DNA of 20,385 bases from Candidatus Eiseniibacteriota bacterium (GCA_043810925.1 JBDRNT010000021.1:1-20385); one strand, 5' to 3'. Numbered from the stretch's first letter, positions 2,982 through 20,241 are shown. Notes: generated by a model from the letters alone, not told the origin. A program made the numbers and translations.

Positions 2982-3041
2982 AGGTATCGTGAGAACTGGA
3001 AGCAATATCAAGGACCGGGACATCCGGGAGGCAGGACGGTC

Positions 3042-3863
3042 GTGAGATCACGCAATACCAGGCTCGTGGCGGCTGCGCTCCTTGTCCTGCTCGCCGTCAA
3101 TCTCTTCCCGCTCTATGTCATGGTATCGGTATCGGTAAAGGGGGAGGGGACGGTCTTATCACGCCTCTATGATCTTATCCCCTCAGAGCCCACCCTTGAG
3201 AACTACCGCGAGATCCTCAGCCACGGCCCCTTCGCCCGCTACTTCTTTAACAGCACCGTGGTGGTGGCCTTCGTGGTCTTAGGAAACCTCGCATTCGCCT
3301 CGACGGCGGCATATGCCATAGCACGGAGCAGGCGAAAGTACGCGAACCTGATGCTGGCGGTCCTGGTCTCCACCATGATGATTCCCAAGCACATCATGAT
3401 GATTCCGCTCTTTACCCTGCTCTTAAGGATGAACCTCATAGACACCTACTATGCGCTCGTACTTCCATTCCTGGTGGATGCCTTCAATGTGTTTTTCATC
3501 CACCAGTATGTTAAGTCGGTGCCGAGGGAAATTGAGGAGGCCGCCTTCGTGGATGGCGCCGGCCTCTTCACCACGTTTACGCGCATCGTGTTCCCTGCGC
3601 TTAAACCCGCCCTGGTTGTGGTCGCCATCAACACCTTCCTGCTTAACTGGAACTCATTTCTCCTCCCATTCATCCTCACCAACTCGGATAAGGTGAGGAC
3701 TTTGCCCGTGGGTCTTGCTATCTTCTCCCAGGGAGAGCACAGCGTCGACTGGGGCCTTTTGATGGCCGGAGCCACCCTGGCGGCCATCCCGACCATAGTC
3801 GCTTTTGCCTTCTTCCAGAAACACATTGTCCGCGGGATCACCGAGGGAGCCGTGAGAGGTTAG
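3042..3863 (+). CDS. Sugar ABC transporter permease (MalG/UgpE-like)
   Basis: EAA loop EIEEAAFVDGAGLFTTFTRIVFP, WNSFLLP, TLPVGL and C-terminal FQKHIVRGITEGAVRG; GTG start. Confidence 0.93.
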   Translation: MRSRNTRLVAAALLVLLAVNLFPLYVMVSVSVKGEGTVLSRLYDLIPSEPTLENYREILSHGPFARYFFNSTVVVAFVVLGNLAFASTAAYAIARSRRKYANLMLAVLVSTMMIPKHIMMIPLFTLLLRMNLIDTYYALVLPFLVDAFNVFFIHQYVKSVPREIEEAAFVDGAGLFTTFTRIVFPALKPALVVVAINTFLLNWNSFLLPFILTNSDKVRTLPVGLAIFSQGEHSVDWGLLMAGATLAAIPTIVAFAFFQKHIVRGITEGAVRG

Positions 3864-3865
3864 CG

Positions 3866-5041
3866 ATGGCCAGGAACTATACAATATGCGGCATCATGTC
3901 GGGCACCTCGCGCGACGGGGTGGATGTGGCCGTGGTCAAGATCTCGGGCAACTTCCCGTCCAACAAAATCAGGCCGCTCTACGCCGAAACCTACACTTAC
4001 CCGCCCTGGCTAAAGACCCTGCTGCTCACTCCCTTGAAAAACCTTGAGGTGGAAGACGTATCGGGGCTGGATTTCCTGCTTGGAGAGATCTATGCCGAGT
4101 ATGCCCTCCGGGCGATCCAGAGCGCCGGACTTGAGCCCCAGGATGTTGATGCCATCGGCTCCCACGGGCAGACCCTGCTTCACCTGCCCAGGGGAAGAAA
4201 ACTCGGTGAGCGCACCGTGAGGTCGACCCTGCAGGTAGGCTCGGGTGCAATGATCGCCCAGAAGGCGGGAATCACGACCGTATCGGACTTCAGGAGCGCG
4301 GACATCGCGTCGGGAGGGGAGGGAGCCCCACTGGTTCCGGTCTTTGACTATGTGGTGCTCCGCTCGCCGAAGAAGTCACGCCTTGCCCTTAATATCGGAG
4401 GCATAGCCAATCTCACCGCGATCCCTAAGAAGGCCAAGTTGGGGGACATGATCGCCTTCGACACCGGGCCGGGAAACTGCATGATCGATACCGCGCTCCG
4501 GCTACGCTCGGGGGAGGCTTCGGCGTTTGACCGGGACGGGGCGCTCGCCCGCGTCGGAAAGCTTGACGAGGAGTGCGTCGAAGAGGTTCTTTCGCATCCC
4601 TACTTCGCCCGGAAGCCCCCCAAGACGACCGGGTGGGAGGAGTTCGGCGAGGACTATACCCGCGGGCTCGTGGAGGCAATGGCCGGACGGGGCAGATCGA
4701 CCAGGGACATGGTGAGGACCTTCACCGAGATCACCGGCGCCACCATTGCCAATTCCATCGAGGACTTCGTGCTGCCCTTAATGAGCGTGGATGAGGTCAT
4801 AGTGACGGGCGGGGGGAGCCGAAATTCCATGCTTATGGGCCTCATAAAGAAGCGGCTGCCCGAGATCCCGGTGGATACAGGAGAGGCCCACGGCATCGAC
4901 TCCGATGCCAAGGAGGCCTGCGCCTTTGCTTATCTGGCTTATCTTCGCCTGGAGGGGGTTTCCGCCAACATAGTCTCCCAGGCTGCGGGCCTTGAGCCCG
5001 CCCTCCTGGGCTCCGTTTCTGAATCTGGGGTCACCCGGTGA
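3866..5041 (+). CDS. anmK: Anhydro-N-acetylmuramic acid kinase
   Basis: GIMSGTSRDGVD, IGSHGQT, DFRSADIASGGEGAPLVP, LNIGGIANLT, FDTGPGN, GGGSRN and KEACAFA; clustered with murQ. Confidence 0.95.
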   Translation: MARNYTICGIMSGTSRDGVDVAVVKISGNFPSNKIRPLYAETYTYPPWLKTLLLTPLKNLEVEDVSGLDFLLGEIYAEYALRAIQSAGLEPQDVDAIGSHGQTLLHLPRGRKLGERTVRSTLQVGSGAMIAQKAGITTVSDFRSADIASGGEGAPLVPVFDYVVLRSPKKSRLALNIGGIANLTAIPKKAKLGDMIAFDTGPGNCMIDTALRLRSGEASAFDRDGALARVGKLDEECVEEVLSHPYFARKPPKTTGWEEFGEDYTRGLVEAMAGRGRSTRDMVRTFTEITGATIANSIEDFVLPLMSVDEVIVTGGGSRNSMLMGLIKKRLPEIPVDTGEAHGIDSDAKEACAFAYLAYLRLEGVSANIVSQAAGLEPALLGSVSESGVTR

Positions 5042-5057
5042 GGGATTACGTTTGCTG

Positions 5058-5086
5058 TTGACAGCAACCTCCGGCTGATGTATCTT
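5058..5086 (+). promoter_or_regulatory. Sigma70-type promoter for the tRNA
   Basis: TTGACA (5058-5063), 17-nt spacer, TATCTT (5081-5086), 15 nt upstream of the tRNA. The -35 lies within an inverted repeat TTGCTG-TTGA-CAGCAA (5052-5067). Confidence 0.7.
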
Positions 5087-5101
5087 GATTCCTGCATGAG
5101 C

Positions 5102-5179
5102 GGGGTCGTGGTGCAGCTTGGTTAGCACACTGGCCTGTCAAGCCAGAGGTCGCGGGTTCGAGTCCCGTCGGCCCCGCCA
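5102..5179 (+). tRNA. tRNA-Asp(GTC)
   Basis: Folds as a cloverleaf: acceptor GGGGTCG/CGGCCCC, D stem GTGC/GCAC, anticodon stem CTGGC/GCCAG with GTC at 5137-5139, T arm GCGGG-TTCGAGT-CCCGT, discriminator G and encoded CCA. Confidence 0.97.
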
Positions 5180-5503
5180 GTCCAATTCCTTCCCAGTCGA
5201 GTCTACATCGGTTTTGAGCTCAGACTTTCACTCATGAAACAGAACCAGCCCTATACTGCTTGGCATATACTGGGGACGCCCCTACCCAGAAGTTCTAATC
5301 CCGTATGGGGATCCAGTCTGCATCAAAGGCAGAACCTCGTAGTGCGCTTTCGGACCAACCACATGGCGAGCGGAGGTCGTATGGTTTTTGAGATATGCCC
5401 CGGGTGGTGGATGATGCGGTTCACCACCTCGAAGCGAACTATGAGACGGAGAGGGACATGTCACCGGATCGCAAAGAAAGTTGCTACAGCAGGGCGCTTT
5501 CTA

Positions 5504-5512
5504 TGGTATAAT
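5504..5512 (+). promoter_or_regulatory. Extended -10 promoter candidate for the unit 1 gene
   Basis: TGgTATAAT about 180 nt upstream of ATG 5695; no well-spaced -35. Confidence 0.45.
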
Positions 5513-5694
5513 CCGTGCGAGGCGATAGAGTGTTTCTTAGAAGCTGCTCAAGAAAGTCCACTCTCAGTTGCCGATGTACACCCTAAGAACAAGCAGAGCG
5601 ATTCTGAGACCGGACCTTGACAGTGATATGGCGCGCCGAAACGCGTACTCGACGTGGGGAAGGTGAGGTTCCGGGCCAAGGGAGGTGTGCGGTC

Positions 5695-7566
5695 ATGAGA
5701 AGGTTCATATGGTTGTTAATTGCAGTATGTCTCCTCGTCGGTTTGTCGGGAGTGGCGGCGGCACGAATCAATGAGTCAGAGCAGAATCAGCCAGTGGCCG
5801 TCATGGATGAGCGCCTCGATCTCGGCGATGCGGCCGCCGTGCGCGATTCGTTCTTCAATGATCTACACATTGGAGCCCTCTGGTTTCCCAGCATCTCGAA
5901 CAAGGGATATATAGGGTACTACGATCTCTCAGCCTATTATCCCGGAGGCGCTGACCAGTCCACGGTGTGGCAGGCTGGTATGTGGGCCGGAGGATACGTC
6001 TGGGATGAGGGAGAGGAGGAGTTCTATCCCCTCCCCTGGCATTGGCTCGGGTCGGATGCAAGCCACTGTGACCCTGACTTGTATGATAGTCTCGGCCTGC
6101 AAGCAGTTGTCGACACCGAGACAGATCTTGGCCTGCCTTACCCTTACAGGCGTCTCACAATACGCGTGAACACCGCCTCCAAGCCGCTTGAGGTAAGCGA
6201 GAGAGGCATAATAGACGGGGACATGGGCATGACCGTAACCTTCCAGTGGCACCAGTGGGGTGTTCCCGATTACGACCACTGGGTCTTTGTCCATGTCAGG
6301 ATCGAGTTCACCAAGGCTATCGACGACTTCTACTGGGCTTGGATGAGCGACTGCGACGTAGGTGACGTTTTCTACCACTATGATTACTATCTCGATGATT
6401 ACGCAGGCTGGGATGACAGTCTCAAGTTCTGTTACATGAGAGACTGGGATTATGATCCTCTCATCGGTCAGCCACCCGCAGGATCGACAGAGGATAGCCT
6501 CTTTCTCTCACCAGGTGCCGTCGGGCAGTACCTGCTTGCCGCCCCGCCGGTAGGCGGTCCGGTAACTGCCGATCCTGATGGGGCGCAGAAGTGGGTAACG
6601 AAGAACTACTGGGATTGGAACAATGACTATTCGACCAGACAGGATGCATACGACCGTATTGCCGGTATCTGGGAGAACCCGTTCCCGTCACCAACGGCCT
6701 TCGATTACCGGATTCTGAACGGTGTTGGTCCATACGACGTATCGGCGGGTGATACGGCTCATTTCTGGATGGCTTACGTGGTTGGCGAAGGCTATGACGA
6801 GGCTTCACACGCAACGTATGACCTGGGTGCTCTGGTCAATCATGTCCAGGATGCGCAGGCGTTTTTCGATGGTGGGATGGTGATACCTGCGCCGGACATC
6901 CCGCCGCAAGCGCCCGATTTGAATCCCGACCTGGACTTTGACGTTACCGGCGATACGATAAGGATCGACTGGGCGCCCTACAGCAACATCGCCGGCGGCG
7001 TCACAGCAGACAGTTTCTTCGTTTACCAGAGCGCGGTGAGCAAGCTGGGTCCTTGGGAAAGGGTTGCTGCATTCGATGCTTCTGTGACGGAAACGGAGAT
7101 TGGATTAGTGTCTGCCTGCACCTATTTCTGGGTACAGGCATACGATACAGGCAACCAGGTGGGCAGCGATCCCTATGCCGTTTCGAGTCGCCTGTATGAA
7201 AGGGACGAAGATGGCATCATCCGGGCGGATTGGAGTACCATCGTGTGTGCGGAATCTCCGTTCACCGGGGTTCCACCACAGCCACAGCTGGCAAACAGCC
7301 TGTCCCAGAACTACCCGAACCCGTTCAATCCTACGACAACTATCGCATATTCCATTTCCTCTCCAGGAGAGGTGAATCTTCGAGTATATGATGTATCTGG
7401 TAGCCTGGTGCAAGTCCTCGTGAACGAGCCAAAGGCAGTGGGTGAGTATAGAGCATCCTGGGATGGGCGCGATATAAGAGGAATGAAAGCTGCCCCCGGT
7501 GTCTACTTCATCAGGCTTGAAGCGGACTGGCAGGTGAAGACGAGAACGATTATCTTGCTGGAATAA
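5695..7566 (+). CDS. Secreted acidic protein with C-terminal FlgD-Ig / T9SS type A sorting-like domain
   Basis: GGAGG at 5681-5685 before ATG 5695; signal peptide MRRFIWLLIAVCLLVGLSGVAAA; C-terminus LSQNYPNPFNPTTTIAY...LRVYDVSGSLV...WDGRD...GVYFIRL. Confidence 0.85.
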   Translation: MRRFIWLLIAVCLLVGLSGVAAARINESEQNQPVAVMDERLDLGDAAAVRDSFFNDLHIGALWFPSISNKGYIGYYDLSAYYPGGADQSTVWQAGMWAGGYVWDEGEEEFYPLPWHWLGSDASHCDPDLYDSLGLQAVVDTETDLGLPYPYRRLTIRVNTASKPLEVSERGIIDGDMGMTVTFQWHQWGVPDYDHWVFVHVRIEFTKAIDDFYWAWMSDCDVGDVFYHYDYYLDDYAGWDDSLKFCYMRDWDYDPLIGQPPAGSTEDSLFLSPGAVGQYLLAAPPVGGPVTADPDGAQKWVTKNYWDWNNDYSTRQDAYDRIAGIWENPFPSPTAFDYRILNGVGPYDVSAGDTAHFWMAYVVGEGYDEASHATYDLGALVNHVQDAQAFFDGGMVIPAPDIPPQAPDLNPDLDFDVTGDTIRIDWAPYSNIAGGVTADSFFVYQSAVSKLGPWERVAAFDASVTETEIGLVSACTYFWVQAYDTGNQVGSDPYAVSSRLYERDEDGIIRADWSTIVCAESPFTGVPPQPQLANSLSQNYPNPFNPTTTIAYSISSPGEVNLRVYDVSGSLVQVLVNEPKAVGEYRASWDGRDIRGMKAAPGVYFIRLEADWQVKTRTIILLE

Positions 7567-7599
7567 CAACTCCGCTACGGGCTCACCTTTTCACCGGAT

Positions 7600-7707
7600 C
7601 TATCCCGTGGCGCAAAGATCATAAGCCATCCGTGCCATCTTGGCGCATTCCTGGCTGAAGAGGAAGTTCCGATAGTCGTCCCGTATGGCCCGCCATTGAC
7701 CTTCCCG
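7600..7707 (+). repeat. att-like element copy R1 (core 7678-7695, variant type)
   Basis: Core GTCCCGTATGGCCCGCCA (15/18 to the tRNA 3' end); minus strand reads WRAIRDDYRNFLFSQECAKMARMAYDLCATG*; right flank TTGACCTTCCCG. Confidence 0.92.
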
Positions 7708-7729
7708 CTGTGGGTCCTGGTTTTCTACC

Positions 7730-7758
7730 TTCACGGACAGCCACAACTGTGCTACAAT
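7730..7758 (+). promoter_or_regulatory. Promoter candidate, unit 2
   Basis: TTCACG, 17 nt, TACAAT with extended TG at 7750-7751; GAGGAG RBS follows before ATG 7781. Confidence 0.55.
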
Positions 7759-7780
7759 AACTCCCGAGGAGTTACGAGAT

Positions 7781-8809
7781 ATGGGACGCATGGTATTGGT
7801 ATATGTTTTGACTGTTCTCGTCTTCACGTCGGTATCTTTGGCCCGTGCTTGGTACATCCAACCGGATAGCACGGGTGACGCCCCGACGATCCGGGCCGGC
7901 GCGGACCTGGCGGCGAATGGAGATACGTTGCTACTCGCCGACGGTGTCTATGCAGGAGCAGATAACAAGAATGTGACTGTGGTCAACAGCCGACTCACGA
8001 TTATGTCCGAGAGTGGAGACCCCGAGCTTTGTGTGATTGACTGCGAGGGCTCTGGTAGATTTGCCATCTATGCCGGTGTGTCTGATAGTTCTGCCTCTGG
8101 CCTTGTACAGGGCCTGAAGATCACAGGTGCATCGACAGCCATCGAAGCCAGTGAGGATGTCTCTCTGAGTATCAACAATTGTATTCTCACGGGAAACAGT
8201 GGCCCAGCCGTCAGAGCTTCAGGGATGCCGGCTCAAGACTATGCCAGAATCAATGTTAGCCGGAGCACCTTTTCATCAAATCCTGCTGGTGCAATGTCCT
8301 GCGGCTATAAGTGCGGGCTCACAGCTGGATCATGCACGTTCTTCAATAACGGGCGTATACTGTTTGTTGATGAGCAAGGCTATGGTTCACTATTGAGATG
8401 CACAGTCGCGTTCAACTCGGTCAGCTCCGGAGGGCTAATAGTGAGCTCCTACTCAGGTGTCATAATCAATAAATCGATAATCGCATTCAACAGTGGAAAC
8501 ATAATCGAATACGTAGGTTGGTGTGACGTCGCCTTGGAGTGCTCTGATGTTTATGGTAACACTGCTGGCGATTACGTCGGATGTCTTGCCGGCAGAAATG
8601 GTATTGATGGGAATATCTCTTCTGATCCCCTGTTCTGCGATGTGGCGACTGGGACCTTCACAGTTGAAGAGTGTTCCCCTTGCCTTCCCGGTAACCACCC
8701 GGACAGTGTTGACTGTGATCTGATAGGTGCATGGGATGTTGGATGTGTTTGTGGGCCGTCAGCCACTGAGTCCTCAACGTGGGGTGGAATCAAGAGCCTC
8801 TACAGGTAG
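7781..8809 (+). CDS. Secreted right-handed parallel beta-helix (pectin-lyase-fold-like) protein with TWGxIKxxYR C-terminus
   Basis: Signal peptide; PTIRAGAD..GDTLLLADGVY.G N-cap; repeated xxNCxFxxN-like rungs; GNISSDPLFCD...SPC...IGAW; ends STWGGIKSLYR. Confidence 0.8.
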   Translation: MGRMVLVYVLTVLVFTSVSLARAWYIQPDSTGDAPTIRAGADLAANGDTLLLADGVYAGADNKNVTVVNSRLTIMSESGDPELCVIDCEGSGRFAIYAGVSDSSASGLVQGLKITGASTAIEASEDVSLSINNCILTGNSGPAVRASGMPAQDYARINVSRSTFSSNPAGAMSCGYKCGLTAGSCTFFNNGRILFVDEQGYGSLLRCTVAFNSVSSGGLIVSSYSGVIINKSIIAFNSGNIIEYVGWCDVALECSDVYGNTAGDYVGCLAGRNGIDGNISSDPLFCDVATGTFTVEECSPCLPGNHPDSVDCDLIGAWDVGCVCGPSATESSTWGGIKSLYR

Positions 8810-8818
8810 GAAGCCAAG

Positions 8819-8919
8819 CTATGCCAGATTAGCCACCATCTGTGCCATCTTGGCACATTCCTGACTCATAAGAAAGTTGCGAAAGTCGTCCCGTCGGCCC
8901 CGCCACTGACTTTCCCGTC
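8819..8919 (+). repeat. att-like element copy R2 (core 8888-8905, exact tRNA 3' end)
   Basis: Core identical to 5162-5179; minus strand reads WRGRRDDFRNFLMSQECAKMAQMVANLA*; right flank CTGACTTTCCCGTC. Confidence 0.95.
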
Positions 8920-8940
8920 CAAGCTCTCGTGAATCCACGC

Positions 8941-8969
8941 TTTAATCCCGGACACATCTGTGCCATAAT
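8941..8969 (+). promoter_or_regulatory. Promoter candidate, unit 3
   Basis: TTTAAT, 17 nt, CATAAT with extended TG at 8961-8962; AGGAGG at 8978-8983. Same layout as unit 2. Confidence 0.55.
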
Positions 8970-8990
8970 GACCCCACAGGAGGTGCAAGC

Positions 8991-10034
8991 ATGGGACGCA
9001 TGGTATTGGTATCTGCATTAGCGATTGTTCTCCTCGCATCGGTATGTATGGCCAGAACCTGGTACATCACACCCGACGGCTTTGGAGACCTTCCCACGAT
9101 TCAGGCGGCGGTGGATTCCGCGGCGGAGGGGGACACGCTACTCCTTGCTGACGGCACCTACCGAGGGCCGGGGAACCGCGATGTGACCGTAGACAAGCGC
9201 CTGATAATAAGATCGGAAAGCGATGACCCCGAAGCCTGCATAATCAACTGTGAGGGGAGTTCGGCCTCTCCCCACCGGGCATTCTACATCCCGTTCGGAA
9301 CCGGCCTCCACAGCGAGTTATCGGGTGTATCGGTAGTGAACGGTTGGGATCCCTCATGGGGCGGGGCGGTCCATATTCATGGCCCCGGTGCGGATATTAG
9401 AAACTGCATTTTCCGCGACAATTACGCTGATATGGGTGGGGCGGTCTGGGTCGAGGACTATCGTGGAGGTCCGAGCCTCATCTCAGAGTGCGCCTTTATA
9501 GGCAATTCTGCGGGTTCGGGAGGCGCAGTCTTCGCGAACTACTGGCCAACGCACCTTATAATAGAACGCTCCCTGTTCGCGCGGAACTCGGCCTTTACTG
9601 GCACCATTGTGATAGAGGCCGAGAGATTTCCGGAAATCGTCGTGGAGATAAACAACTGCACCATGGTTGATAACTCTGGCTGGTACTCGGCTGTGTGGAA
9701 CAAGACCTTCGACACATATTGCTGTGTTATCAGGAATTCCATCATCGCCTACGGTACCGGAGAATACCAACCGGTCCTGGACTGCCGTGTACAGTGCTCG
9801 GCTTTCTATGAGAACCAGCCCTACCCCGATTGGCTGCCGGCTGGTGATGGGAACTTCTCGGCTGACCCCCTCTTCTGTGATACTCTGAGTGGTGACTTCC
9901 ATCTTGATTGCAGATCACCCTGTGCGCCTGCTCAACAACCTGAATGTGGCTTGATAGGTGCCTGGGACGTAGGTTGTGGCCCATCTCAGACTGAGCCCAC
10001 AAGCTGGGGCAGAATCAAGTCGATGTACAGGTAA
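8991..10034 (+). CDS. Secreted right-handed parallel beta-helix protein, paralogue of 7781-8809
   Basis: Signal peptide; PTIQAAVD..GDTLLLADGTYRGPGN; GGAV/FxxN repeats; GNFSADPLFCD...SPC...IGAWDVGC; ends SWGRIKSMYR. Confidence 0.82.
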   Translation: MGRMVLVSALAIVLLASVCMARTWYITPDGFGDLPTIQAAVDSAAEGDTLLLADGTYRGPGNRDVTVDKRLIIRSESDDPEACIINCEGSSASPHRAFYIPFGTGLHSELSGVSVVNGWDPSWGGAVHIHGPGADIRNCIFRDNYADMGGAVWVEDYRGGPSLISECAFIGNSAGSGGAVFANYWPTHLIIERSLFARNSAFTGTIVIEAERFPEIVVEINNCTMVDNSGWYSAVWNKTFDTYCCVIRNSIIAYGTGEYQPVLDCRVQCSAFYENQPYPDWLPAGDGNFSADPLFCDTLSGDFHLDCRSPCAPAQQPECGLIGAWDVGCGPSQTEPTSWGRIKSMYR

Positions 10035-10043
10035 AAAGCCGAG

Positions 10044-10146
10044 TCATGCCAGATTAGTCACCATCTGTGCCATCCTGGCGCATTCCTGACTCATCAGAAA
10101 GTTGCGATACTCGTCCCGTATGGCCCGCCATTGAATCTTGGCGAGC
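10044..10146 (+). repeat. att-like element copy R3 (core 10113-10130, variant type)
   Basis: Minus strand reads WRAIRDEYRNFLMSQECARMAQMVTNLA*; right flank TTGAATCTTGGCGAGC. Confidence 0.95.
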
Positions 10147-10276
10147 CCGATATCCCTGTATAACCTCAGACTCCCGAAGCAGCATATAGCACATAACGGC
10201 TCTCACTAGGGTGAGGACCTCATCATGATGAGGATGTCATTCGGGCTTTGGTATAAGTAGAAGCGTGGTCTCCATG

Positions 10277-11572
10277 TCAGCCCTCAGCGAAGTAGCCTGG
10301 ATTAAGGACTCTGCCCACGAAAAGAATCGTATTCGTGTAGCGTTCGCGAATCACGAACATGAAAGGATGGTCGACCTTGATCGTGAAAGATGAACACTCC
10401 GGCGGAACGCTTGTCGGTCCACATTCAACTTCCGTTACTGCAGCAGCCTCGGTGCCGACCTCATTAACCCTGACATAGGTCTTATGACGAACGGCCGTGA
10501 TCTGGAGTGCCATGCTGCGACACATCTCTGAGAAGTCAGCATCCCCGAAGGCCTCTCCCATGCCAAGAGCAGTCAGCACATCATTCATCACCAAATTGTA
10601 TTTCAGCTCGAATCTCGGCATGAGGAGTACTCCCCTGCAGGTATGAAAGCTGCTTGTCAGGCTGTCCCAGCGGTCGGGATTGAGCCACGATATTATCTCA
10701 TCAACATCCTGCCCATGACGCGGCAAGAGCAGCGTCATGGTGAACAGACTATCACCGTAGGGCAGATCAACGGCCTGGAAGTGATCGTTAAGCACCACAC
10801 TGTAATCAGCGAGGAGTTCCGTGACATCGGATGGTGGAGGAAACTGTGGTCTGGACATCATCCTGCAAGGTGTTTTCGGTTCATTCGGTGGATGAAACCA
10901 ATCGTCCTTGGTATCCGCGGGATCAAACTGATACTGCCAGTTACCGAGGAAGTAGATCGCATTGACAAGGATTATCATTGTCGCAGGGTCAATGGGCTTC
11001 GGGACAATCTCTGTGATCTTGCCATGAGTCTTCTCATCAACCCATCCATTGATGATGTCTGATGCGTCAGGCTGGTCGAAGTCAAGGCTGCTTACCTCGG
11101 CATCGAAACACGTCCGGCAGGCTTCGAGAAACGGCGCTTCGAATATCACTCCGCTCCTGCCCCAGATGGAATTCGCGATCTCGAATAGCACTTCGGGATC
11201 CAGGCCTGTCAGAAGATCGATCAGGTCCCTGTAACATTGATCTGCACTCTCCGTGCTATACCCCGGAAATCCAAGTGTCATAAGCATGGAATCAAGGGTT
11301 GATCCGCCAGCCCCATTCATGGTCATACCAAGTGCCATGGAAACGCTTAAGGGGGATATGAAGATGTTACTATCGGATTGCGCCTTCACAATCTCCTTGA
11401 AAAGCCTGAAGGCGAAGTCATTATTAGCGGAGACCAGTATCTCCTGAGAGAGAGGATCACCACTGTGCTCTTCGTCACTCTGTGGACACAGAGAGTCCCG
11501 CCCGCAGCCCGCAAGGGCGATCAACATGAATACCGAGAAAAACAGACCGAAGGTCCTAATTCCTCTTCCCAT
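10277..11572 (-). CDS. Serpin (serine protease inhibitor) lipoprotein
   Basis: Lipobox LAGC; NNDFAFRLF, NIFISPLSVSMALGM, INGWVDEKTHGKI, LVNAIYFLGNW, hinge EVGTEAAAVT and DHPFMFVIRE...ILFVGRV. Confidence 0.96.
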   Translation of the reverse strand: MGRGIRTFGLFFSVFMLIALAGCGRDSLCPQSDEEHSGDPLSQEILVSANNDFAFRLFKEIVKAQSDSNIFISPLSVSMALGMTMNGAGGSTLDSMLMTLGFPGYSTESADQCYRDLIDLLTGLDPEVLFEIANSIWGRSGVIFEAPFLEACRTCFDAEVSSLDFDQPDASDIINGWVDEKTHGKITEIVPKPIDPATMIILVNAIYFLGNWQYQFDPADTKDDWFHPPNEPKTPCRMMSRPQFPPPSDVTELLADYSVVLNDHFQAVDLPYGDSLFTMTLLLPRHGQDVDEIISWLNPDRWDSLTSSFHTCRGVLLMPRFELKYNLVMNDVLTALGMGEAFGDADFSEMCRSMALQITAVRHKTYVRVNEVGTEAAAVTEVECGPTSVPPECSSFTIKVDHPFMFVIRERYTNTILFVGRVLNPGYFAEG

Positions 11573-11666
11573 ACCGCAGCCCCCAATGCCTGCAGCCGAG
11601 GATCCAAGCGTTCCTCTGACTCCGAGCTGAGCTTACCATGCTAACGTGAGTACTGCAAGGGAAGAA

Positions 11667-11767
11667 TCACGTAGCGACGGCGACCATGCGGGCCGTCTCC
11701 AGACACTCCTCAGACCTCAGAAAGTTCCGATACTCGTCCCGTATGGCCCGCCACTGACTTTCCCGTC
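11667..11767 (+). repeat. att-like element copy R4 (core 11736-11753, variant type)
   Basis: Left arm diverged in DNA but the minus strand still reads WRAIRDEYRNFLRSEECLETARMVAVAT*; right flank CTGACTTTCCCGTC is identical to R2. Confidence 0.92.
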
Positions 11768-11997
11768 TGTTTTCGACATTACTTATCGATGCTTCTCCGC
11801 ATGTGACGATTATCTCGCTTGGAAGTCCCGCCGAACCAGTAAGGAGGTCCCCGCTGAAGGCTGGAAATTAAACCATGTTGACATACAGGACAGAATGGAG
11901 GAGCATACAGCCTGTGCGAAAGCGGAAGCCGTGCTTAATGTGGTTAACCGGATCAACATAAGTACCAGTTAGCTGCTTGAGGAAAAGGAGTCCGTGA

Positions 11998-13161
11998 ATG
12001 AGGACGCACGTCAAAGCTAATCAATTCAGCGTGGCAATGCGGATCGCGTTGCCCCTTCTAATCTCATCGGCCATGGCTTGCGCGGCATCGTCCTCTATGT
12101 CGAGCCGTCCGACGGGGCGCGCGTTCACGGAAGCCGATGCGCTCTTCCGCCGGGACCCGAGCTGGCTCGGTGCCGATGCCGCACTTTCGGTTCCACTCGG
12201 CAACGGTCGCACACTCTGGCTCTTTGGTGACACATTCGTCGCCAAGTCGAATGCCCATGTGCGCTCAGAGTCCCCAATGGTAAGGAACACGGTCGCGATC
12301 CAGACGGGGGAGGATCTGCGCACTGCCTCGATCACGTTCCACTGGGGGCGGAAGAGTGATGGCTCGCCGGCATCGTTTTTTCCAAAGCGCGGGCAGTACT
12401 GGTATTGGCCTGGGCACGGGATTCGGCTCGATGAAGGGCCGCTGGTCATCTTTCTATACGCGATGGTCGAGACACCAGGCCAGGGTCTTGGCTTTGCGAG
12501 CGCGGGCTACGCCATCGCCGTGATCAACGATCCAGATGCATCGGTGGAAACATGGAACCCGCGCATTGTCGATGTCGCTCCGAGCAGCTTCGATGCCATT
12601 CCTGCGACGGCGGTGATCCAGGACGGCGCGTACATCGTTGCTGTTGGCATCCGCCAAGAAGGAACGCACGCTGGCGCGCTCGTTCGCTACCCGACGCACC
12701 TGCTGGCACAGGGTGATGTCGACAGCGCTGAATGGTGGGCGGGTGATGAGCGCGGGTGGGTCCCGGAATCCTCACTCGGCGAAGGTGGTCCGGCGTTCGT
12801 TATGGACGACGCGGGAAGCGAATGCTCGCTCCACTGGGATGAGCGCTCGGGATCATTCATCCACGTTGCGAGCTACGGCTTTGGCGCGTCGACGATCGGG
12901 CTGCGTACTGCACCTGCGCTCACAGGCCCCTGGAGTCACCCGGTCGTCGTCTACCGTCCGCCCGAGTCGGATGGTCCGCAACCATTCGTGTACGCGGCGA
13001 AGGCTCACCCGGAGCTGGTCGGCCCAGACGCCGCCGACCTCGTCGTGACGTACGCCACGAACAGTTTCGAGTTCGGGGATCTGTTTACGGAAGAAGGCGC
13101 GCGTTCTCTATACTGGCCGCGAGTCGTCCTCGTGCGGGTAGGAAAGGGAGGTGTGTGGTAG
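11998..13161 (+). CDS. Exported DUF4185/DUF5005-like protein (probable beta-propeller, possibly carbohydrate-active)
   Basis: AAGGAG RBS; hydrophobic N-region with Cys; WLGAD...GRTLWLFGDTF, APALTGPWS, YAAKAHPEL and YWPR motifs recalled from this family. Confidence 0.7.
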   Translation: MRTHVKANQFSVAMRIALPLLISSAMACAASSSMSSRPTGRAFTEADALFRRDPSWLGADAALSVPLGNGRTLWLFGDTFVAKSNAHVRSESPMVRNTVAIQTGEDLRTASITFHWGRKSDGSPASFFPKRGQYWYWPGHGIRLDEGPLVIFLYAMVETPGQGLGFASAGYAIAVINDPDASVETWNPRIVDVAPSSFDAIPATAVIQDGAYIVAVGIRQEGTHAGALVRYPTHLLAQGDVDSAEWWAGDERGWVPESSLGEGGPAFVMDDAGSECSLHWDERSGSFIHVASYGFGASTIGLRTAPALTGPWSHPVVVYRPPESDGPQPFVYAAKAHPELVGPDAADLVVTYATNSFEFGDLFTEEGARSLYWPRVVLVRVGKGGVW

Positions 13162-13169
13162 GTGGAAGC

Positions 13170-13228
13170 AGCTATCAAGGGCACGCGGTGGACACGCTGA
13201 CGATCGCCGATGATGCACAACGTTAGCC
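13170..13228 (+). other. Degenerate integron attC site (59-base element)
   Basis: Starts 8 nt after the stop. R''-like AGCTATC to R'-like GTTAGCC spans 59 nt. AAGCAGCTATC (13166-13176) matches the reverse complement of GTTAGCTGCTT (11968-11978) at 10/11. Confidence 0.65.
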
Positions 13229-13259
13229 TCAGCAGGTCAACAAGGCCAAGTCTGTATTC

Positions 13260-13362
13260 TCAAGTTAGATTAGCCACCAAATGTGTCACTTTGACACACT
13301 CCTGGCTTAATAGAAAGTTCCGATACTCGTCCCGTATGGCCCGCCATTGAATCTCAGCGAGC
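13260..13362 (+). repeat. att-like element copy R5 (core 13329-13346, variant type)
   Basis: Minus strand reads WRAIRDEYRNFLLSQECVKVTHLVANLT*; right flank TTGAATCTCAGCGAGC (14/16 to R3). Confidence 0.95.
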
Positions 13363-13531
13363 TCAATGCATAGGTCATAGATCCAATCCTCTTCAGCTGC
13401 GCCAAGACCAGCATCCCAATGCGGGAAGTCTCCCAGCCTTGAACATGCACTCATATTTGGTGTAGTCCCATACAGTGGACGCGAGAACATGCAATGACGT
13501 ACGCGAATAGCTGCAGGCCATAGTACGAGGG

Positions 13532-13740
13532 ACTGACAGTGATGAAGGCGGGGCCCATTGATGTCCTCCGACGGACGGTGGATTGCTTTCGCTCGGAGTA
13601 ATGAACTTCTGCTCCTGGACATATCCTTCTATCAAGAGACCCCCATAACGTGCATGAACAGTGCGTGTTCTGACTCACTCGCGTGGATCGTCTGGATTAG
13701 CCAATGGATCTCCTTGTCTTCCCAGAGAAGATCCTACTGA
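13532..13740 (+). pseudogene. Possible decayed TolB/PD40 beta-propeller fragment
   Basis: SSDGRWIAFARSNELLLLD resembles the PD40 motif SPDGxxIAF; TDSDEGGP lies just upstream in a shifted frame; no intact ORF. Confidence 0.4.
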
Positions 13741-13963
13741 CCCTGAGTGCAGTCTCATCGGCGCGTGGGGAAAAGCGTGTGGTTCCAGGCAAGATACCGA
13801 GTAGAGACGCGCGAAACGGCCAGAACAGGCTTTGAGGCCCGTACAGAACTCAAGCGCTTCGCTGTGCGTGATTGATGTGAAATTGCACACTTGGGTGAAC
13901 CGGAGATTTCAATAATTCCCGGCGTGGCGCTGAGGGCAGACGAGCAGTACTGGTACAATATGC

Positions 13964-13992
13964 TTGACACTCAGGCGTGTCTGGACCATGAT
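13964..13992 (+). promoter_or_regulatory. Sigma70-type promoter candidate for the unit 6 gene cluster
   Basis: TTGACA, 17 nt, CATGAT; AGGAGGAGG RBS before ATG 14048. Confidence 0.5.
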
Positions 13993-14047
13993 CGCATCCT
14001 GCAATGCTAAGCCTGTTGACAGCATCAGGCAATAGGAGGAGGACAAG

Positions 14048-14542
14048 ATGAAGAGTACTCGATTGATTCTGATTGGAGCTGCAATGGCGATAGCCCTGGG
14101 TCCCGTTCTTGCTCTGGCCGGTCCAGACACCGACATCGGCTTCCGCGGCTGGGGCCCGCGGGTAGGATTGTCGCTCGACCCCGACCAGGTCCACTTCGGC
14201 GCTCACCTCGATTTCGGCAACTTCGCCCGGCACGTCCGCTTTCAACCCAACGTGGAGTTGGGCTTCGGGGATGACATGAAGATCTTTACTGTCAACGCTG
14301 AGGCAGCGTATCGCTTCCGCTCACAATGGGACGTCTGGACTCCGTACCTCGGCGGTGGTCTTGGCGCGAACATCAAGAGCTTCGACAACGTGGGAAACAA
14401 CAACTCGCAGACCGACCTAGGCGTCAACCTGCTCGGCGGGATCGAGAGAGGGCTCTCAAACGGTGACCGTTTCTTCATCGAGGGCAAGTTCAGCCTGAAC
14501 GACGTGCCAGACGCCAAGGTCACGGTCGGCTGGACGTTCTAA
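14048..14542 (+). CDS. Small outer-membrane beta-barrel protein
   Basis: Signal peptide, alternating amphipathic strands, PYLGGGLG and terminal aromatic VTVGWTF. Confidence 0.85.
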   Translation: MKSTRLILIGAAMAIALGPVLALAGPDTDIGFRGWGPRVGLSLDPDQVHFGAHLDFGNFARHVRFQPNVELGFGDDMKIFTVNAEAAYRFRSQWDVWTPYLGGGLGANIKSFDNVGNNNSQTDLGVNLLGGIERGLSNGDRFFIEGKFSLNDVPDAKVTVGWTF

Positions 14543-14559
14543 CACTAGCCATGGGGCAA

Positions 14560-14596
14560 AGAGGGGCGCCGTCGGTTGGCACCGCCCCTCTCGTTT
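14560..14596 (+). terminator. Possible intrinsic terminator or processing hairpin
   Basis: AGAGGGGCG (14560-14568) pairs with CGCCCCTCT (14583-14591); weak U-tract CGTTT. Confidence 0.45.
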
Positions 14597-14622
14597 CCCG
14601 GTAGTACAAGAGGAGGTTTCAT

Positions 14623-14772
14623 ATGTTGTGGGCGATCGCAGTCGTATTCATCGTTCTATGGCTGCTCGGCCTTGTTACGTCCTTCACGATGCACGGCTTC
14701 ATCCATATTCTGCTTGTGATCGCCGTGATTGCTGTGCTGGTCCGCATCATTCAAGGGCGAAGGGTGCTGTAG
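14623..14772 (+). CDS. lmo0937-family small membrane protein (49 aa; absent from the ORF track)
   Basis: AGGAGG RBS; translates as MLWAIAVVFIVLWLLGLVTSFTMHGFIHILLVIAVIAVLVRIIQGRRVL, matching the family pattern LWLLG...GxIHILLVxA. Confidence 0.88.
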   Translation: MLWAIAVVFIVLWLLGLVTSFTMHGFIHILLVIAVIAVLVRIIQGRRVL

Positions 14773-14828
14773 ACGGGGCTTCGGCCAGAAGAAGCCTGGG
14801 ACATAAACTTTATGGAGGAGTGTTTGAC

Positions 14829-15461
14829 ATGTGGATCATTCGAGGCATTCTTGTTGCAGTTCTAAGTCTGTGCTTTGTGCTGCCGGCTGCAGCTCAGTAC
14901 ATCGGCGTCATGCAGTCCGCCGAGACGGTGGACAAGGGCACGTTCAAACTCATGGTTGGCCCGGTCCTGGCATTCGGCGAGAACGGAGCAGATAACGAGT
15001 TCGGGATCGCGGCCCGTGGCGGGTACGGATTCACCGACCGCTTCGACGCCGAAGCCAATCTGGGCTTCTTTGAGAATAGCACCTTTGTCGGCGCGGATGG
15101 CGAGTTGTGGATTCTGAAGGGTCAGGAAAAGTATACCGGCCTGGATTTCTCGTTGGCGGGAGGCGTCCACTGGATGCTCGGTAAAGACAATCATTTCGAC
15201 ACCATGGGATTCGAGCTCACACCGCTGTTCAGCGGGCATGTGAACAAGAGCCTGGAGCTGTACGGCGCTCTGGATGTCTCGTTCGAGTCGATCAAGGATA
15301 CCCCGCCGGGGTTCGACGACACGTTCACGAGATTGCACCTCGTGCCCGGAATCGAGTACCGCCTGTCTGACAAAGCGGACCTGGTTGGCGAGATCGGTAT
15401 CGGGCTCAACGACGACTCGTTTTCCTATGTGGGGGGTGGCATCGCTTTCTACCTGCGCTGA
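14829..15461 (+). CDS. Outer-membrane beta-barrel protein
   Basis: GGAGGAG RBS before ATG 14829; signal peptide ending PAAAQ; amphipathic strands; C-terminal GGGIAFYLR. Confidence 0.8.
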   Translation: MWIIRGILVAVLSLCFVLPAAAQYIGVMQSAETVDKGTFKLMVGPVLAFGENGADNEFGIAARGGYGFTDRFDAEANLGFFENSTFVGADGELWILKGQEKYTGLDFSLAGGVHWMLGKDNHFDTMGFELTPLFSGHVNKSLELYGALDVSFESIKDTPPGFDDTFTRLHLVPGIEYRLSDKADLVGEIGIGLNDDSFSYVGGGIAFYLR

Positions 15462-15560
15462 CGGGGAGTGGTCTGGTCATCGCCCTTGCTGTCTGGTGGC
15501 TCCGGCCGACTCCGGCCGGGGTACCGGCAGGCGGGCATAGATTAGGAAAGGGCAAGTGAA

Positions 15561-15773
15561 ATGAGAATCTTTGGAATCGTACTCGTGGTCCTAGGAGTTA
15601 TCGCGCTGGTCTACGGCGGAATCAGCTACAACAAGAACCGGACGGTCCTCCAGATGGGTGATATGACCGTTACCGCCACGGAGCATAAGAGCATTACGGT
15701 CCCGGCAGTCGTCGGTGTGGTTATGCTGATCGGCGGCGGCGCACTTCTGGTGGTCGGCAAGCGCCGTTCCTAG
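15561..15773 (+). CDS. Small two-TM membrane protein (DUF3185-like)
   Basis: 70 aa; two hydrophobic helices flanking a short soluble beta-rich loop. Confidence 0.8.
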   Translation: MRIFGIVLVVLGVIALVYGGISYNKNRTVLQMGDMTVTATEHKSITVPAVVGVVMLIGGGALLVVGKRRS

Positions 15774-15838
15774 CCCGATTCGCGGACTTGGAGATGTCTC
15801 GCTGGCAATTGCATTCGTTCAAGACGGGTGGACACGGT

Positions 15839-17284
15839 ATGGCCAGTCGCAGATCTGTTTTCGCCGTTGTGGCGGTTCTCATGTTGCTTTTGATCCCCCT
15901 AGCTTGCGCCATCAATCCCGTCACGGGCAAGAAGGAATTCATGCTGGTCACGGAAGGCGACGAAATCGCCCTTGGAAAGCAGGCCGATCAGGAAATCGGT
16001 CAGACCTACGGCATCTACGACAATTCAGGGTTGTCGAATTGCGCCAACCGGATCGGTCAAGATATGTCCAAGGTGACACAGCGGCCGAATCTCGAATACC
16101 ATTTCCAGGTGTTGGACACGCCAGTCATCAATGCGTTTGCCGGGCCCGGCGGATACGTCTACGTAACACGTGGCATTATGGCTTACTTTAACGACGAGGC
16201 CGAGCTGGCCGGCGTGATCGGACACGAACTCGGCCATGTGAGCGCCAGACATGTAGCCCAGCAGATTAGCCGCCAGCAGGTTGCCCAGCTCGGGCTCGGG
16301 GTCGGCATGATCTTTTCGGAAGATTTCAGAAAGTACTCCGGTCTGGCCCAGTTCGGCGCGAGCATGCTGTTTCTTAAATTCAGCCGTGACGACGAGCGTC
16401 AGGCAGACGACCTCGGAGTCGAATACGCGAGCAAGGCGGGTTACGACACCAATCGGATGGCTTCGTTTTTTCAGACCTTGGAAAGAGTCAATCCGGGAGG
16501 CAACGGGGCCTTGCCGGATTGGTTCTCAACGCATCCCAATCCGGAGAACCGGATTGCGGCGGTAAACAATGCGACCGAGGAATGGCGCCGGAGACTTGAT
16601 CGTACCCAGTACGCGGTCAATCGTAACGATTATCTGAAAGTGGTTGACGGAATCATATACGGTGACGACCCGCGGCAGGGATACGTGGAGGGCGATGCGT
16701 TTTACCATCCGACTATGGAATTCACCCTTCCGGTTCCAAGCGGCTGGCGGGTTACCAACACGCCTGCACAGGTCCAAGTCCTTTCGGATAAACAGGACGC
16801 CGTGATTCTGCTTATGCTGGACGGTTCCGGGTCTGTCTCTCAGGCGGCAGATCGGTTTGTGCAGGACGCCCATGCCGCCGTGCAGTCGAGGGAACACCTG
16901 GTTGTCAACGGACTTCAAGCTGAAAAGGTCGTTTCGCGGCTGGTGTCCGAGCAAGACACACTTCGGGCCATGTCCTACTTCATTGCCAAAGGCGGAGCCA
17001 TTTACGCTCTCCATGGGCTGACCGGACAGACTGCATTCTCACAGTACTCGCCGACGTTTTCCAGAACATTCGGCGGGTTCAAGAATCTGGACGATCCGTC
17101 CAAGATCAACGTGCAACCCGAGAGGCTCGCTGTCAAAACCGTCACCAAGGCCGGCAGTTTGAGAACGCTCTTGAAGCAATTCGGTACGCCGGAGAGCGAA
17201 CTCGAGAATATAGCCGTCTTGAATGGTATGCAGCTGGAAGACAATGTGAGCGCGGGTACGCTGATAAAGATCGTGGCAAAATGA
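15839..17284 (+). CDS. M48-family zinc metalloprotease lipoprotein
   Basis: Lipobox LAC followed by AINPVTGK; NAFAGPGGYVYVTRG, HELGH, FSRDDERQAD and STHP; LysM-like C-terminal tail. Start placed at ATG 15839. Confidence 0.92.
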   Translation: MASRRSVFAVVAVLMLLLIPLACAINPVTGKKEFMLVTEGDEIALGKQADQEIGQTYGIYDNSGLSNCANRIGQDMSKVTQRPNLEYHFQVLDTPVINAFAGPGGYVYVTRGIMAYFNDEAELAGVIGHELGHVSARHVAQQISRQQVAQLGLGVGMIFSEDFRKYSGLAQFGASMLFLKFSRDDERQADDLGVEYASKAGYDTNRMASFFQTLERVNPGGNGALPDWFSTHPNPENRIAAVNNATEEWRRRLDRTQYAVNRNDYLKVVDGIIYGDDPRQGYVEGDAFYHPTMEFTLPVPSGWRVTNTPAQVQVLSDKQDAVILLMLDGSGSVSQAADRFVQDAHAAVQSREHLVVNGLQAEKVVSRLVSEQDTLRAMSYFIAKGGAIYALHGLTGQTAFSQYSPTFSRTFGGFKNLDDPSKINVQPERLAVKTVTKAGSLRTLLKQFGTPESELENIAVLNGMQLEDNVSAGTLIKIVAK

Positions 17285-17390
17285 TCTCACTTGCTCTCCG
17301 TGATGGTGCGGGCGCATTGGTTGGCAGTGGGCTACTGAGCATAGGATTGGGATCGGTCGCGAGGTCACGAAAGGAGGAAGCGGAGAAGAC

Positions 17391-17558
17391 ATGAATCCAC
17401 TCATCGGTCTTGCCGTTCTGGTGCTGGATGTCGTCGCGATCGTGGATTGCCTCAAGAGGCCCATGGCGACAGGCAAAAAAGCTCTGTGGATCATCTTAAT
17501 CCTGGTGCTGCCAGTGGTCGGGATGATTCTGTATTTCCTGTTAGGCAGAAGAAAATAG
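17391..17558 (+). CDS. PLDc N-terminal-domain small membrane protein (55 aa; absent from the ORF track)
   Basis: Translates as MNPLIGLAVLVLDVVAIVDCLKRPMATGKKALWIILILVLPVVGMILYFLLGRRK, matching the KxxWxxxIxxxPxxGxxxYxxxG pattern; purine-rich RBS. Confidence 0.88.
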   Translation: MNPLIGLAVLVLDVVAIVDCLKRPMATGKKALWIILILVLPVVGMILYFLLGRRK

Positions 17559-17640
17559 AGAGACGAGTTATCACCTGGCCCGGAATCCAATCGGGCAGGC
17601 AGGAAGTGGGCGAGGTCCCAACGAATGTAAGGAGGTCAAT

Positions 17641-18306: not shown

Positions 18307-18516
18307 AGCGATCGGAATCGAGCCTTACAGTCTGAACGAGGGTATTGGCGATCTTGGCCAATGGATTCTCCGGGGCATAGGTTAGGGAAATGGAGTTCTT
18401 ATGGGCACCCAAGCCTGACAATACTCTAAAAGGAGGGCAGAGCGTTGTTACGGTGTAGGGGACTGATTGACTCTGCATCACGCTGTGCATTACACCACGA
18501 AAGGGGCGCAGTAGAT

Positions 18517-18951: not shown

Positions 18952-18985
18952 TCTCGGCATAGAGTGAGCATTGTCGGCTTTAGGT

Positions 18986-20107: not shown

Positions 20108-20181
20108 TCCAGCCTTGTGCGAAATGCTCGCATAGGGTCATGCAACCGCACAGCACTTGTTTTCTGTACGGTTTTCTTTTC

Positions 20182-20241
20182 TTAGAATTGCCCACTTTGG
20201 CTGAAGTGTGAAGTTTCATACTCGTCCCGTCGGCCCCGCCA
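20182..20241 (+). repeat. att-like element copy R6 (core 20224-20241, exact tRNA 3' end; degenerate left arm)
   Basis: ATACTC followed by the exact 18-mer; TGGCTGAAG..GAAGTT upstream aligns with R1; minus strand reads WRGRRDEYETSHFSQSGQF*. Confidence 0.88.

Follow-up and report, generated by a model that had tools for sequence, protein, structure and literature searches.

A DNA stretch of 20,385 nt from a Candidatus Eiseniibacteriota bacterium (GCA_043810925.1, JBDRNT010000021.1:1-20385), hereafter called the window, carries a row of mobile cassettes behind its tRNA-Asp gene (5180-13346). The cassettes stand in tandem, encode no integrase and mostly hold a single gene, and the repeats that close them, here called arms, are recombination junctions. 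On the minus strand of the arm, the ~24 codons to the left of a tRNA-like core appear, from their pattern of codon changes, to be under purifying selection as protein, with a stop at a fixed position. This antisense tail is the end of no recombinase gene present in the genomes analyzed. The window is the entire contig of a 3.85-Mb metagenome-assembled genome (MAG) in 185 contigs. Its sole tRNA is a tRNA-Asp(GTC) at 5102-5179 (ARAGORN; Rfam tRNA, 68.7 bits), and Rfam returned nothing else for positions 5000-13700. Five direct repeat copies of 108 nt follow, with the conserved part ending at 7695, 8905, 10130, 11753 and 13346, and every copy closes with the last 18 nt of the tRNA or a near variant of them (GTCCCGTCGGCCCCGCCA or GTCCCGTATGGCCCGCCA). 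The resulting units are 2516, 1210, 1225, 1623 and 1593 bp long, one cargo gene fills each, and no tyrosine recombinase or integrase is encoded in the window. A 44-nt core family includes a sixth, degenerate copy (20198-20241), which had been absent from the original prediction, an earlier sequence-based note on this DNA. The features are as follows.

5102..5179, plus strand: tRNA-Asp(GTC), where the array starts; the arms repeat its last 18 nt (ARAGORN, Rfam, alignment to the arms)
5180..7695, plus strand: first unit after the tRNA, closing in arm R1; cargo open reading frame (ORF) 5617-7566, 649 aa, with a FlgD_ig/Por_Secre_tail C terminus
7600..7695, minus strand: arm R1, 96 nt, tRNA-like core and antisense tail WRAIRDDYRNFLFSQECAKMARMAYDLCATG up to the stop (repeat search, translation, nhmmer)
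7696..8905, plus strand: cassette 1, ORF 7781-8809 for a beta-helix secreted protein, and arm R2
8819..8905, minus strand: arm R2, 87 nt, core identical to the tRNA 3' end; metagenome contigs diverge at 8821 and 8905
8906..10130, plus strand: cassette 2, paralogous beta-helix ORF 8991-10034, and arm R3; moves as a unit (comparison with the relative's locus L081)
10044..10130, minus strand: arm R3, 87 nt; metagenome contig divergence at 10044
10131..11753, plus strand: cassette 3, serpin ORF 10277-11572 on the minus strand, and arm R4
11667..11753, minus strand: arm R4, 87 nt, divergent 'RSEECLE' type
11754..13346, plus strand: cassette 4, DUF4185 ORF 11998-13161, and arm R5
13260..13346, minus strand: arm R5, 87 nt
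20198..20241, plus strand: R6, degenerate arm (20.1 bits) whose tRNA-Asp 3' end is perfect; it closes a multigene stretch of 6.9 kb (13347-20241)

Mobility of the cassettes was evident from L081, the orthologous locus of a relative, whose ABC permease and AnmK genes are 83.2 to 83.7% identical to those of the window. Directly behind the L081 tRNA-Asp, positions 2683-3930 match window positions 8888-10134 with 95.0% identity, and the match spans from the tRNA-like core (8888) to 4 nt beyond the next CCA (10134). After this cassette (8906-10130), L081 has a second cassette and then the flank that adjoins the tRNA in the window; the initial ~130 nt of the window's first unit recur in L081 behind an arm. 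Since the cassette is the first in L081 and the third in the window, and since it is far more alike than the surrounding chromosome, cassettes move as units. The boundaries were mapped by aligning contigs of four other metagenomes, each from a different study, to the region. In two of the four (X2 and X4), contigs diverge exactly after 8905; divergence was also seen before 8821 (X2) and before 10044 (X4), at the stop codons of the tails. When the window and L081 are compared, one and the same arm has either ATGGCCC or CGGCCCC ahead of GCCA. This swapped core variant, together with the divergence at the CCA, maps the crossover to the last ~11 nt or immediately to their left. The orientation of the arms is constant although the serpin cargo is inverted, and thus the arm is part of the border of the unit and not of the gene. 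Reverse-oriented cargo genes have their stop 4 to 80 nt from the preceding CCA, which shows that the units are tightly cut. These data bear out two earlier claims, that the arm is an attachment-site arm at the 3' end of tRNA-Asp and that the copies stem from several separately acquired units.

A third claim, that DNA similarity largely ends at the stop of the tail, was borne out as well: metagenome contigs diverge immediately left of 8821 and 10044 and immediately right of 8905. However, some arms elsewhere stay conserved for 16 to 45 bases further. This longer version of the arm has its extra conserved bases, CAAATCTGTATTCTCA, left of the stop, preceded by TCAGCAGGAC; it was found at window positions 13247-13262, on contigs C108, C110 and C99 of the same genome (G000), and at L071, L075, L078, L089 and L096. 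A separate observation concerns reverse cargo genes with a stop within 1 to 4 nt of the preceding CCA (L043, 5853-8294 and 12463-14742; L107, 5005-7275; L021, 5570-6412), so that gene end and cassette border nearly coincide; they encode Ser/Thr kinase-TPR proteins and a 280-aa protein without a Pfam family.

The arm is not confined to the window. A hidden Markov model built from the five window arms gave 33 nhmmer matches over 15 contigs of the own genome, among them a 6.7-kb contig with five arms and a second AnmK-tRNA-Asp locus with four arms (C7, 36000-46000; locus L021). Including relatives, 69 distinct arms were collected; 31 metagenome contigs added 55 arms, and arrays have up to 6 sites. 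A profile made from 23 tail peptides (A2) and searched in six frames matched 11 of 18 genomes of the phylum, with 1 to 27 matches each at E <= 1e-5. All 11 belong to one order (8 of 12 genomes of family f1, 2 of 3 of family f2, and the own genome). In a wider sample, 13 of 61 genomes matched, of which two, from unrelated genomes, were at chance level (E, 0.005 to 0.009). Searched as a DNA pattern in a public genome collection, the arm gave 15 matches, 13 of them from Candidatus Eisenbacteria; the two labeled Bacteroidetes were rejected as chance, since their likeness is limited to the 24 nt. Viral contigs gave no match. The arm family is restricted to a single order of Candidatus Eisenbacteria. 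Every genome used is a fragmented MAG, and genomes of close kin do not count as independent samples. The flanks of the second AnmK-tRNA-Asp locus are only 71 to 75% identical in DNA to those of the window, and this locus is either an old duplication or a sign that the bin, with an estimated contamination of 1.83%, mixes two related organisms.

Relatives have cassettes closed by the same arm at two other genes, tRNA-Trp and tRNA-Glu, where the terminal bases of the arm match the tRNA concerned: arms behind tRNA-Trp terminate in GCCTGCCA (G008:C11), and arms behind tRNA-Glu in TACGCCA or TACGCTG. The arm is retargeted to these tRNAs by exchange of its last bases. Another large class of arms, the Asn type, has an end, GGGGAGCCA, in common with tRNA-Asn. 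No tRNA ending in TKGGGGAGCCA was found; a looser pattern led to tRNA-Asn, and one Asn-type arm also has its downstream flank in common with a tRNA-Asn fragment. The tRNA-Asn gene is not assembled in the MAG of the window. tRNA-Asn is probably a further target of the arm. Partial 3' ends of tRNA-Asn that retain the T-loop and lack the conserved arm were seen in up to 7 copies per genome (G001, G002, G011 and G013; loci L055, L056, L058, L061 and L062; with a 29-nt tandem duplication in G011:C6), and these armless copies indicate that tRNA-Asn is also hit by other, conventional integrative elements.

Directly to the right of the Asn-type cores, a subset of cassettes has a conserved noncoding module of ~220 nt (TGCGGAACATGTCAG; L075:1839-2073, L028:378-612, L096:751-985, L092:1961-2195 and others). 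It holds an inverted repeat, TGCGGAACAT...ATGTT...CCGCA, with a weak predicted fold, and might represent either a leader RNA or the second arm of the site. Rfam found nothing relevant in five Asn-type loci, and the module had no match. The right flank of the Asn type was also considered as the start of a gene ('MSASVIADS'), which was rejected since no ORF follows. Likewise, continuation of the tail upstream as a protein of ~75 to 130 aa in a subset of arms was rejected because the conservation crosses in-frame stops; this upstream conservation thus belongs to the module at the start of those Asn-type cassettes.

If the arm is read on the minus strand from the CCA, the five peptides of R1 to R5 given in the original prediction are reproduced letter for letter. 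From the CCA through the stop, the frame measures 87 nt in R2 to R5 and 96 nt in R1, and the same frame through the real tRNA gives WRGRRDSNPRPLA before its stop. The changes among the five copies are synonymous or conservative, as had been stated: from R1 to R5, the Leu codons are CTC/CTT/CTG/CTG/CTA, the Ser codons AGC/AGT/AGT/TCT/AGC, and the stops TAG, TAG, TGA, TGA and TGA. The larger collection was then used to compare frames. For 57 of the 69 arms (12 were left out for low identity to the consensus), the 24 codons of the tail frame contained 0 stops, with a synonymous fraction of 0.30 and a mean BLOSUM62 score of +0.24 for replacements; the other five frames had 14 to 106 stops, synonymous fractions of 0.10 to 0.25, and scores of -0.6 to -1.1. 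Codon 29 is a stop in 55 of the 69 arms (TGA in 44, TAG in 8, TAA in 3), and TGG was found there once; the stop at codon 29 and the stop-free tail frame go well past what chance would give. Among 118 distinct arms from the own genome, relatives and metagenomes, pairs with at least 90% identity had 50% of their differences at codon position 3, and 48% of the changed codons were synonymous, versus 16 to 17% in shifted phases. Over the 588 pairs with at least 80% identity, the ratio of nonsynonymous to synonymous changes (pN/pS) was 0.31 in the tail frame, with no stop, versus 0.48 to 1.57 in the other five frames, where 82 to 1511 codon comparisons were lost to stops. The codon-position bias and the stop counts across the six frames thus agree with the earlier claim of a protein-coding tail of fixed length.

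The two parts of the arm differ in how they vary. In a divergent 'RSEECLEVASLVASLP' type, the peptide is kept while the DNA of the left block is <50% identical, and the right block (AAGTTGCGAAAGTCGTCCCGT) is almost invariant, synonymous sites included. It is quite probable that the left two thirds of the arm are constrained as protein, and the right block can be read as a recombinase-binding part laid over the coding constraint. Homology searches gave no lead to what the tail does: Pfam returned only 2 chance matches for 23 tails (E, 0.06 to 0.12), a PDB search returned 0 matches, and the best ESM Atlas score was 0.75, under the lead level of 0.9.

The original prediction had taken the tail as the end of a recombinase gene that spans its own attP, and we therefore searched for its owner. 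Across the 18 phylum genomes, open frames containing the tail did not exceed 176 aa. When 1.84 billion representative proteins were searched with a profile, 104 matched, of which 10 sequences were inspected and the lengths of the others tabulated; two are eukaryote-type repeat proteins and 102 have 24 to 177 aa, so that no owner of more than 177 aa, recombinase or other, was found. A word-indexed search of longer proteins did not find the tail. The own genome has 3763 open frames of 200 aa or more, and comparison of their last 80 residues with the tail gave no E value better than 0.25. When 66 cassettes with two arm or tRNA ends were circularized in silico, the frame joining the tail was at most 177 aa long, with a median of 51 aa; for the five window cassettes, it had 47, 112, 40, 52 and 66 aa. 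The central inference of the original prediction thus fails by the refuting condition set there, the lack of a recombinase ORF joined in frame to the tail in such circles, although an unsampled helper element may exist. ORFs of at least 120 aa that read toward the core beside the 69 arms were cargo, short frames overlapping cargo or flanks on the opposite strand, or read-through of the tail frame (a 544-aa ORF in L049 stood outside the Pfam scan), and no left-truncated arm with a gene reading toward it was found at a contig start. The 12 tyrosine recombinases of the own genome have no likeness to the tail, and tblastn found none of them in any arm locus. Pfam detected no recombinase among the cargo ORFs examined, which were those of the window, selected ORFs in L042, L043, L044, L045 and L050, and one reverse ORF each from L107 and the C7 locus L021. 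The two most arm-rich relatives examined have three tyrosine recombinases each. Contig C32 (4.5 kb) of the own genome has four to five tyrosine recombinase genes crowded together; this cluster has no relation to the arms and resembles the elements called 'recombinase in trio'.

How could such an array arise? Since the same arm stands behind several tRNAs, we infer one trans-acting recombinase of the lineage that is encoded outside the cassettes. Very probably, a trans-acting site-specific recombinase of this order joins the arm of a cassette to the 3' end of a tRNA or to another arm. A cassette begins with the base that follows a CCA, extends through the next CCA and closes in an 87-nt arm, and the cassettes were inserted successively at the 3' end of tRNA-Asp by site-specific recombination. 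The arm, whose last 7 to 18 nt duplicate the tRNA 3' end, is the cassette-borne half of the recombination site, in the role of an integron attC or of an attP arm. The recombinase would build and reshuffle the array in the manner of an integron. The tail, which has no start or conserved upstream partner while integrated, would be translated once it is recombined behind a partner ORF, and this partner, with a gene that the junction completes, might be a platform or a helper element; cassettes with a spoiled tail would cease to spread. That the tail is read only in such a recombination product, behind an ORF on a partner outside these assemblies, is a tentative idea that we consider doubtful. It is unlikely that each cassette bears the last 24 to 28 codons of a junction-completed protein that is itself the recombinase or a factor needed by the recombinase, in which case insertion would exchange the tail of the enzyme, and a cassette would need a functional tail to be movable again. 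For the explanation as a whole, which combines the cassette array, the protein-constrained tail and a junction-completed partner, we have a cautious preference.

Several points weigh against that explanation. No recombinase could be tied to the arms. Thirteen of 18 genomes, every one a member of the order, have an order-wide Xer-like type (C161), and 3 of these thirteen are arm negative; another type (C112) is present in only 3 of 18 genomes, without an arm alongside; both were rejected as the arm recombinase because their phyletic patterns fail to separate arm-positive from arm-negative genomes. Neither an arm nor a tRNA was found beside the C112-type genes or on five integrase contigs. No 'head' ORF for the tail was found in the genome, protein, contig-start or viral-contig searches, and since no partner was observed, the case for a junction-completed gene proceeds by elimination. 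The pN/pS of 0.31 is moderate, and an opposite-strand frame with common third positions reaches 0.48. Moreover, movement was deduced from assembled contigs, with circular cassettes and empty sites not directly seen, and since arrays break assemblies, the ends of the arrays are mostly unseen.

The coding character of the tail would also be expected if the arm were the 3' end of an integrase gene crossing attP, with several donors, a swap of the tail upon integration, and arms left behind as attR remnants. A coding-like, startless tail of fixed length that abuts the crossover is the trace expected of a gene split at its att site, and the coding signature kept in close pairs looks as if the arms sampled an evolving functional gene. 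However, no integrase body lies beside the 69 arms or elsewhere in the arm loci, the frames across the circle junctions reach 177 aa at most, no long protein or viral contig has the tail, and the moving unit is a cassette without an integrase; furthermore, according to a review, integrases with att inside the gene are on record from archaea only (PMC8371274). We regard this origin as improbable. If, instead, the tail were a stand-alone antisense peptide of ~30 to 75 aa with a variable N terminus, translated in place, one would understand why gene callers predict 102 tail-bearing short proteins (24 to 177 aa, mostly with the tail at the C terminus) in public metagenomes and why some copies have an upstream in-frame ATG, such as the 75-aa ORF L049:6262-6489. 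But 42 of 107 arms have no ATG, GTG or TTG from the nearest upstream in-frame stop to codon 9, as had been claimed for the absence of a common start, and this number falls between those of the two control phases (56 and 13 of 107), so that translation in place as a small gene is not general. An upstream in-frame stop lies 0 to 5 codons ahead of the conserved part in several arms, the upstream parts are unconserved or conserved across in-frame stops, and relatives in Pfam, PDB or the Atlas are lacking. We hold such a peptide to be highly improbable.

An untranslated arm, merely a terminator or a recognition site (in DNA, folded single strand or RNA) whose codon pattern is a relic or by-product, would fit the right block, which is near-invariant at synonymous sites like a protein-binding site, and the palindrome TGTGCCA-N3-TGGCACA present in many arms, with 32 double changes versus 19 in shuffles. 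The palindrome was examined as a hairpin because of apparent compensatory changes in R4 and R5 and was rejected: only 64% of the cells were paired, and a slid control was equal. RNAalifold gave no consensus structure for the 69 arms, and there was no Rfam match. A relic would not remain stop free with the strongest synonymous excess in the closest pairs, nor does it agree with the interchange of TGA, TAG and TAA at one position with TGG in only 1 of 69 arms. An untranslated arm is therefore rather unlikely in our estimate. The compact one-gene cassettes, the uniform orientation of the sites, the frequent AbiE toxin-antitoxin cargo and the arrays of up to 6 sites are also what an ordinary cluster of attC sites lacking an integron-integrase (CALIN) would have, in which the attC is merely tRNA-like. 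To this we give hardly any credence: the best TIGR02249 score in the own genome was 111.9 bits versus a cutoff of 265, an attC-type inverted-repeat structure is missing, each array has its precise start at a tRNA gene, and the ends of the sites duplicate the 3' end of the tRNA.

The array and its arms nevertheless resemble several known systems. Like integrons, it has tandem, compact, mostly one-gene cassettes, a site of fixed orientation, mobilization of discrete units by an enzyme encoded outside the cassette, and toxin-antitoxin cargo. Unlike integrons, it is anchored at tRNA 3' ends and not at attI beside intI, IntI was not found, the arm is conserved in sequence whereas integron attC is conserved in its hairpin structure, the attC crossover is GTTRRRY whereas the boundary here is at a tRNA-like GCCA, and the site ends in a tRNA 3' copy plus an antisense frame apparently under purifying selection. 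cis-mobilizable elements (CIMEs) are att-bounded units without int/xis that rely on the recombinase of another element or of the host, and they derive from, and adjoin, a recognizable integrative and conjugative element or integrative and mobilizable element. The cassettes are likewise att-flanked units without a recombinase, but no parent or helper was found (in 18 genomes, viral contigs and protein collections; fragmented MAGs), and they are single genes in long arrays. The prophages e14 and 21 replace the 3' end of the host gene icd, with the head gene beside the site; the arm, too, is an att arm with a coding signature that could supply C-terminal codons, but there is no head in the integrated DNA here. 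Tycheposons span several kilobases and encode an integrase of their own together with functions for replication or packaging (bioRxiv 10.1101/2020.12.28.424599). Shared with these and other tRNA islands in that report are successive integrations at one tRNA that push older units outward, partial tRNA copies between the units, and an array that starts at an intact tRNA, whereas the unit here has 0.6 to 3 kb without a recombinase and a repeat made of a ~95-nt non-tRNA arm with only 7 to 18 nt of tRNA. According to a review, the only known case of att inside a recombinase gene is that of the 'suicidal' archaeal integrases of the Sulfolobus spindle-shaped virus (SSV) type, in which integration splits the gene (PMC8371274). 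Coding fragments at tRNA-linked junctions are common to both; but as described there, att lies near the 5' part of the SSV-type gene and both fragments border the element, whereas here only a C-terminal piece of 24 to 28 codons is present, in a bacterial host. No ORF through the core in the 66 circles and no Int(N)/Int(C) pair beside the 69 arms was found. A literature search, with subscription journals and supplements outside its scope, found no link between Eisenbacteria and integrons and no tRNA-anchored cassette array.

If the preferred explanation is true, this order of Candidatus Eisenbacteria builds its accessory pool, which includes secreted beta-helix proteins, serpins, kinases and AbiE toxin-antitoxin pairs, via an integron-like system anchored at tRNA genes. 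Cassette capture would then have been solved a second time, independently of integrons, and a site that is retargeted by a few bases would be a candidate for a compact tool. The real puzzle is the orphan tail, 24 to 28 codons apparently kept as protein in >100 copies with no owning gene. Its partner would make the coevolution of a recombinase gene and its site directly testable in bacteria. If the tail is indeed completed across the junction, no att-in-gene ('suicidal'-type) recombination module would have been seen outside archaea before, and a recombinase would police its own mobile DNA in a novel manner.

The cargo of relatives comprises DUF11, beta-helix and BNR proteins, histidine and Ser/Thr kinases, a TPR-CHAT protein, and AbiEi/AbiEii pairs. 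The latter recur in Asn-type cassettes (G000 C143, 2635-6445; L044, 9201-10705; L052, 241-2255) and were also seen as a lone cassette with an arm in a 219-kb contig, beside lexA and an impB/mucB-family (Y-family) polymerase gene. In the window, genes for a SIS-domain protein, an ABC transporter and AnmK lie 5' of the tRNA. The stretch between R5 and R6 (13347-20241) has six genes, for two outer membrane beta-barrel proteins, an M48 peptidase, an OmpA-family protein, a protein of unknown function and a C11 peptidase, with a weak arm relic at 18560-18585; it may consist of several decayed cassettes that have merged. The secreted proteins encoded in cassettes at 7781-8809 and 8991-10034 in the window, at 245-1162 on contig C33 of the same genome, and at 38084-38995 and 42616-43320 on C7 have a common C-terminal motif, [ST]WGxIKxx[YF][RK], directly before the stop (STWGGIKSLYR, TSWGRIKSMYR, TTWGAIKSIYR, GTWGNIKRMFR and STWGDIKAVFK), which may be a C-terminal sorting signal of this lineage.

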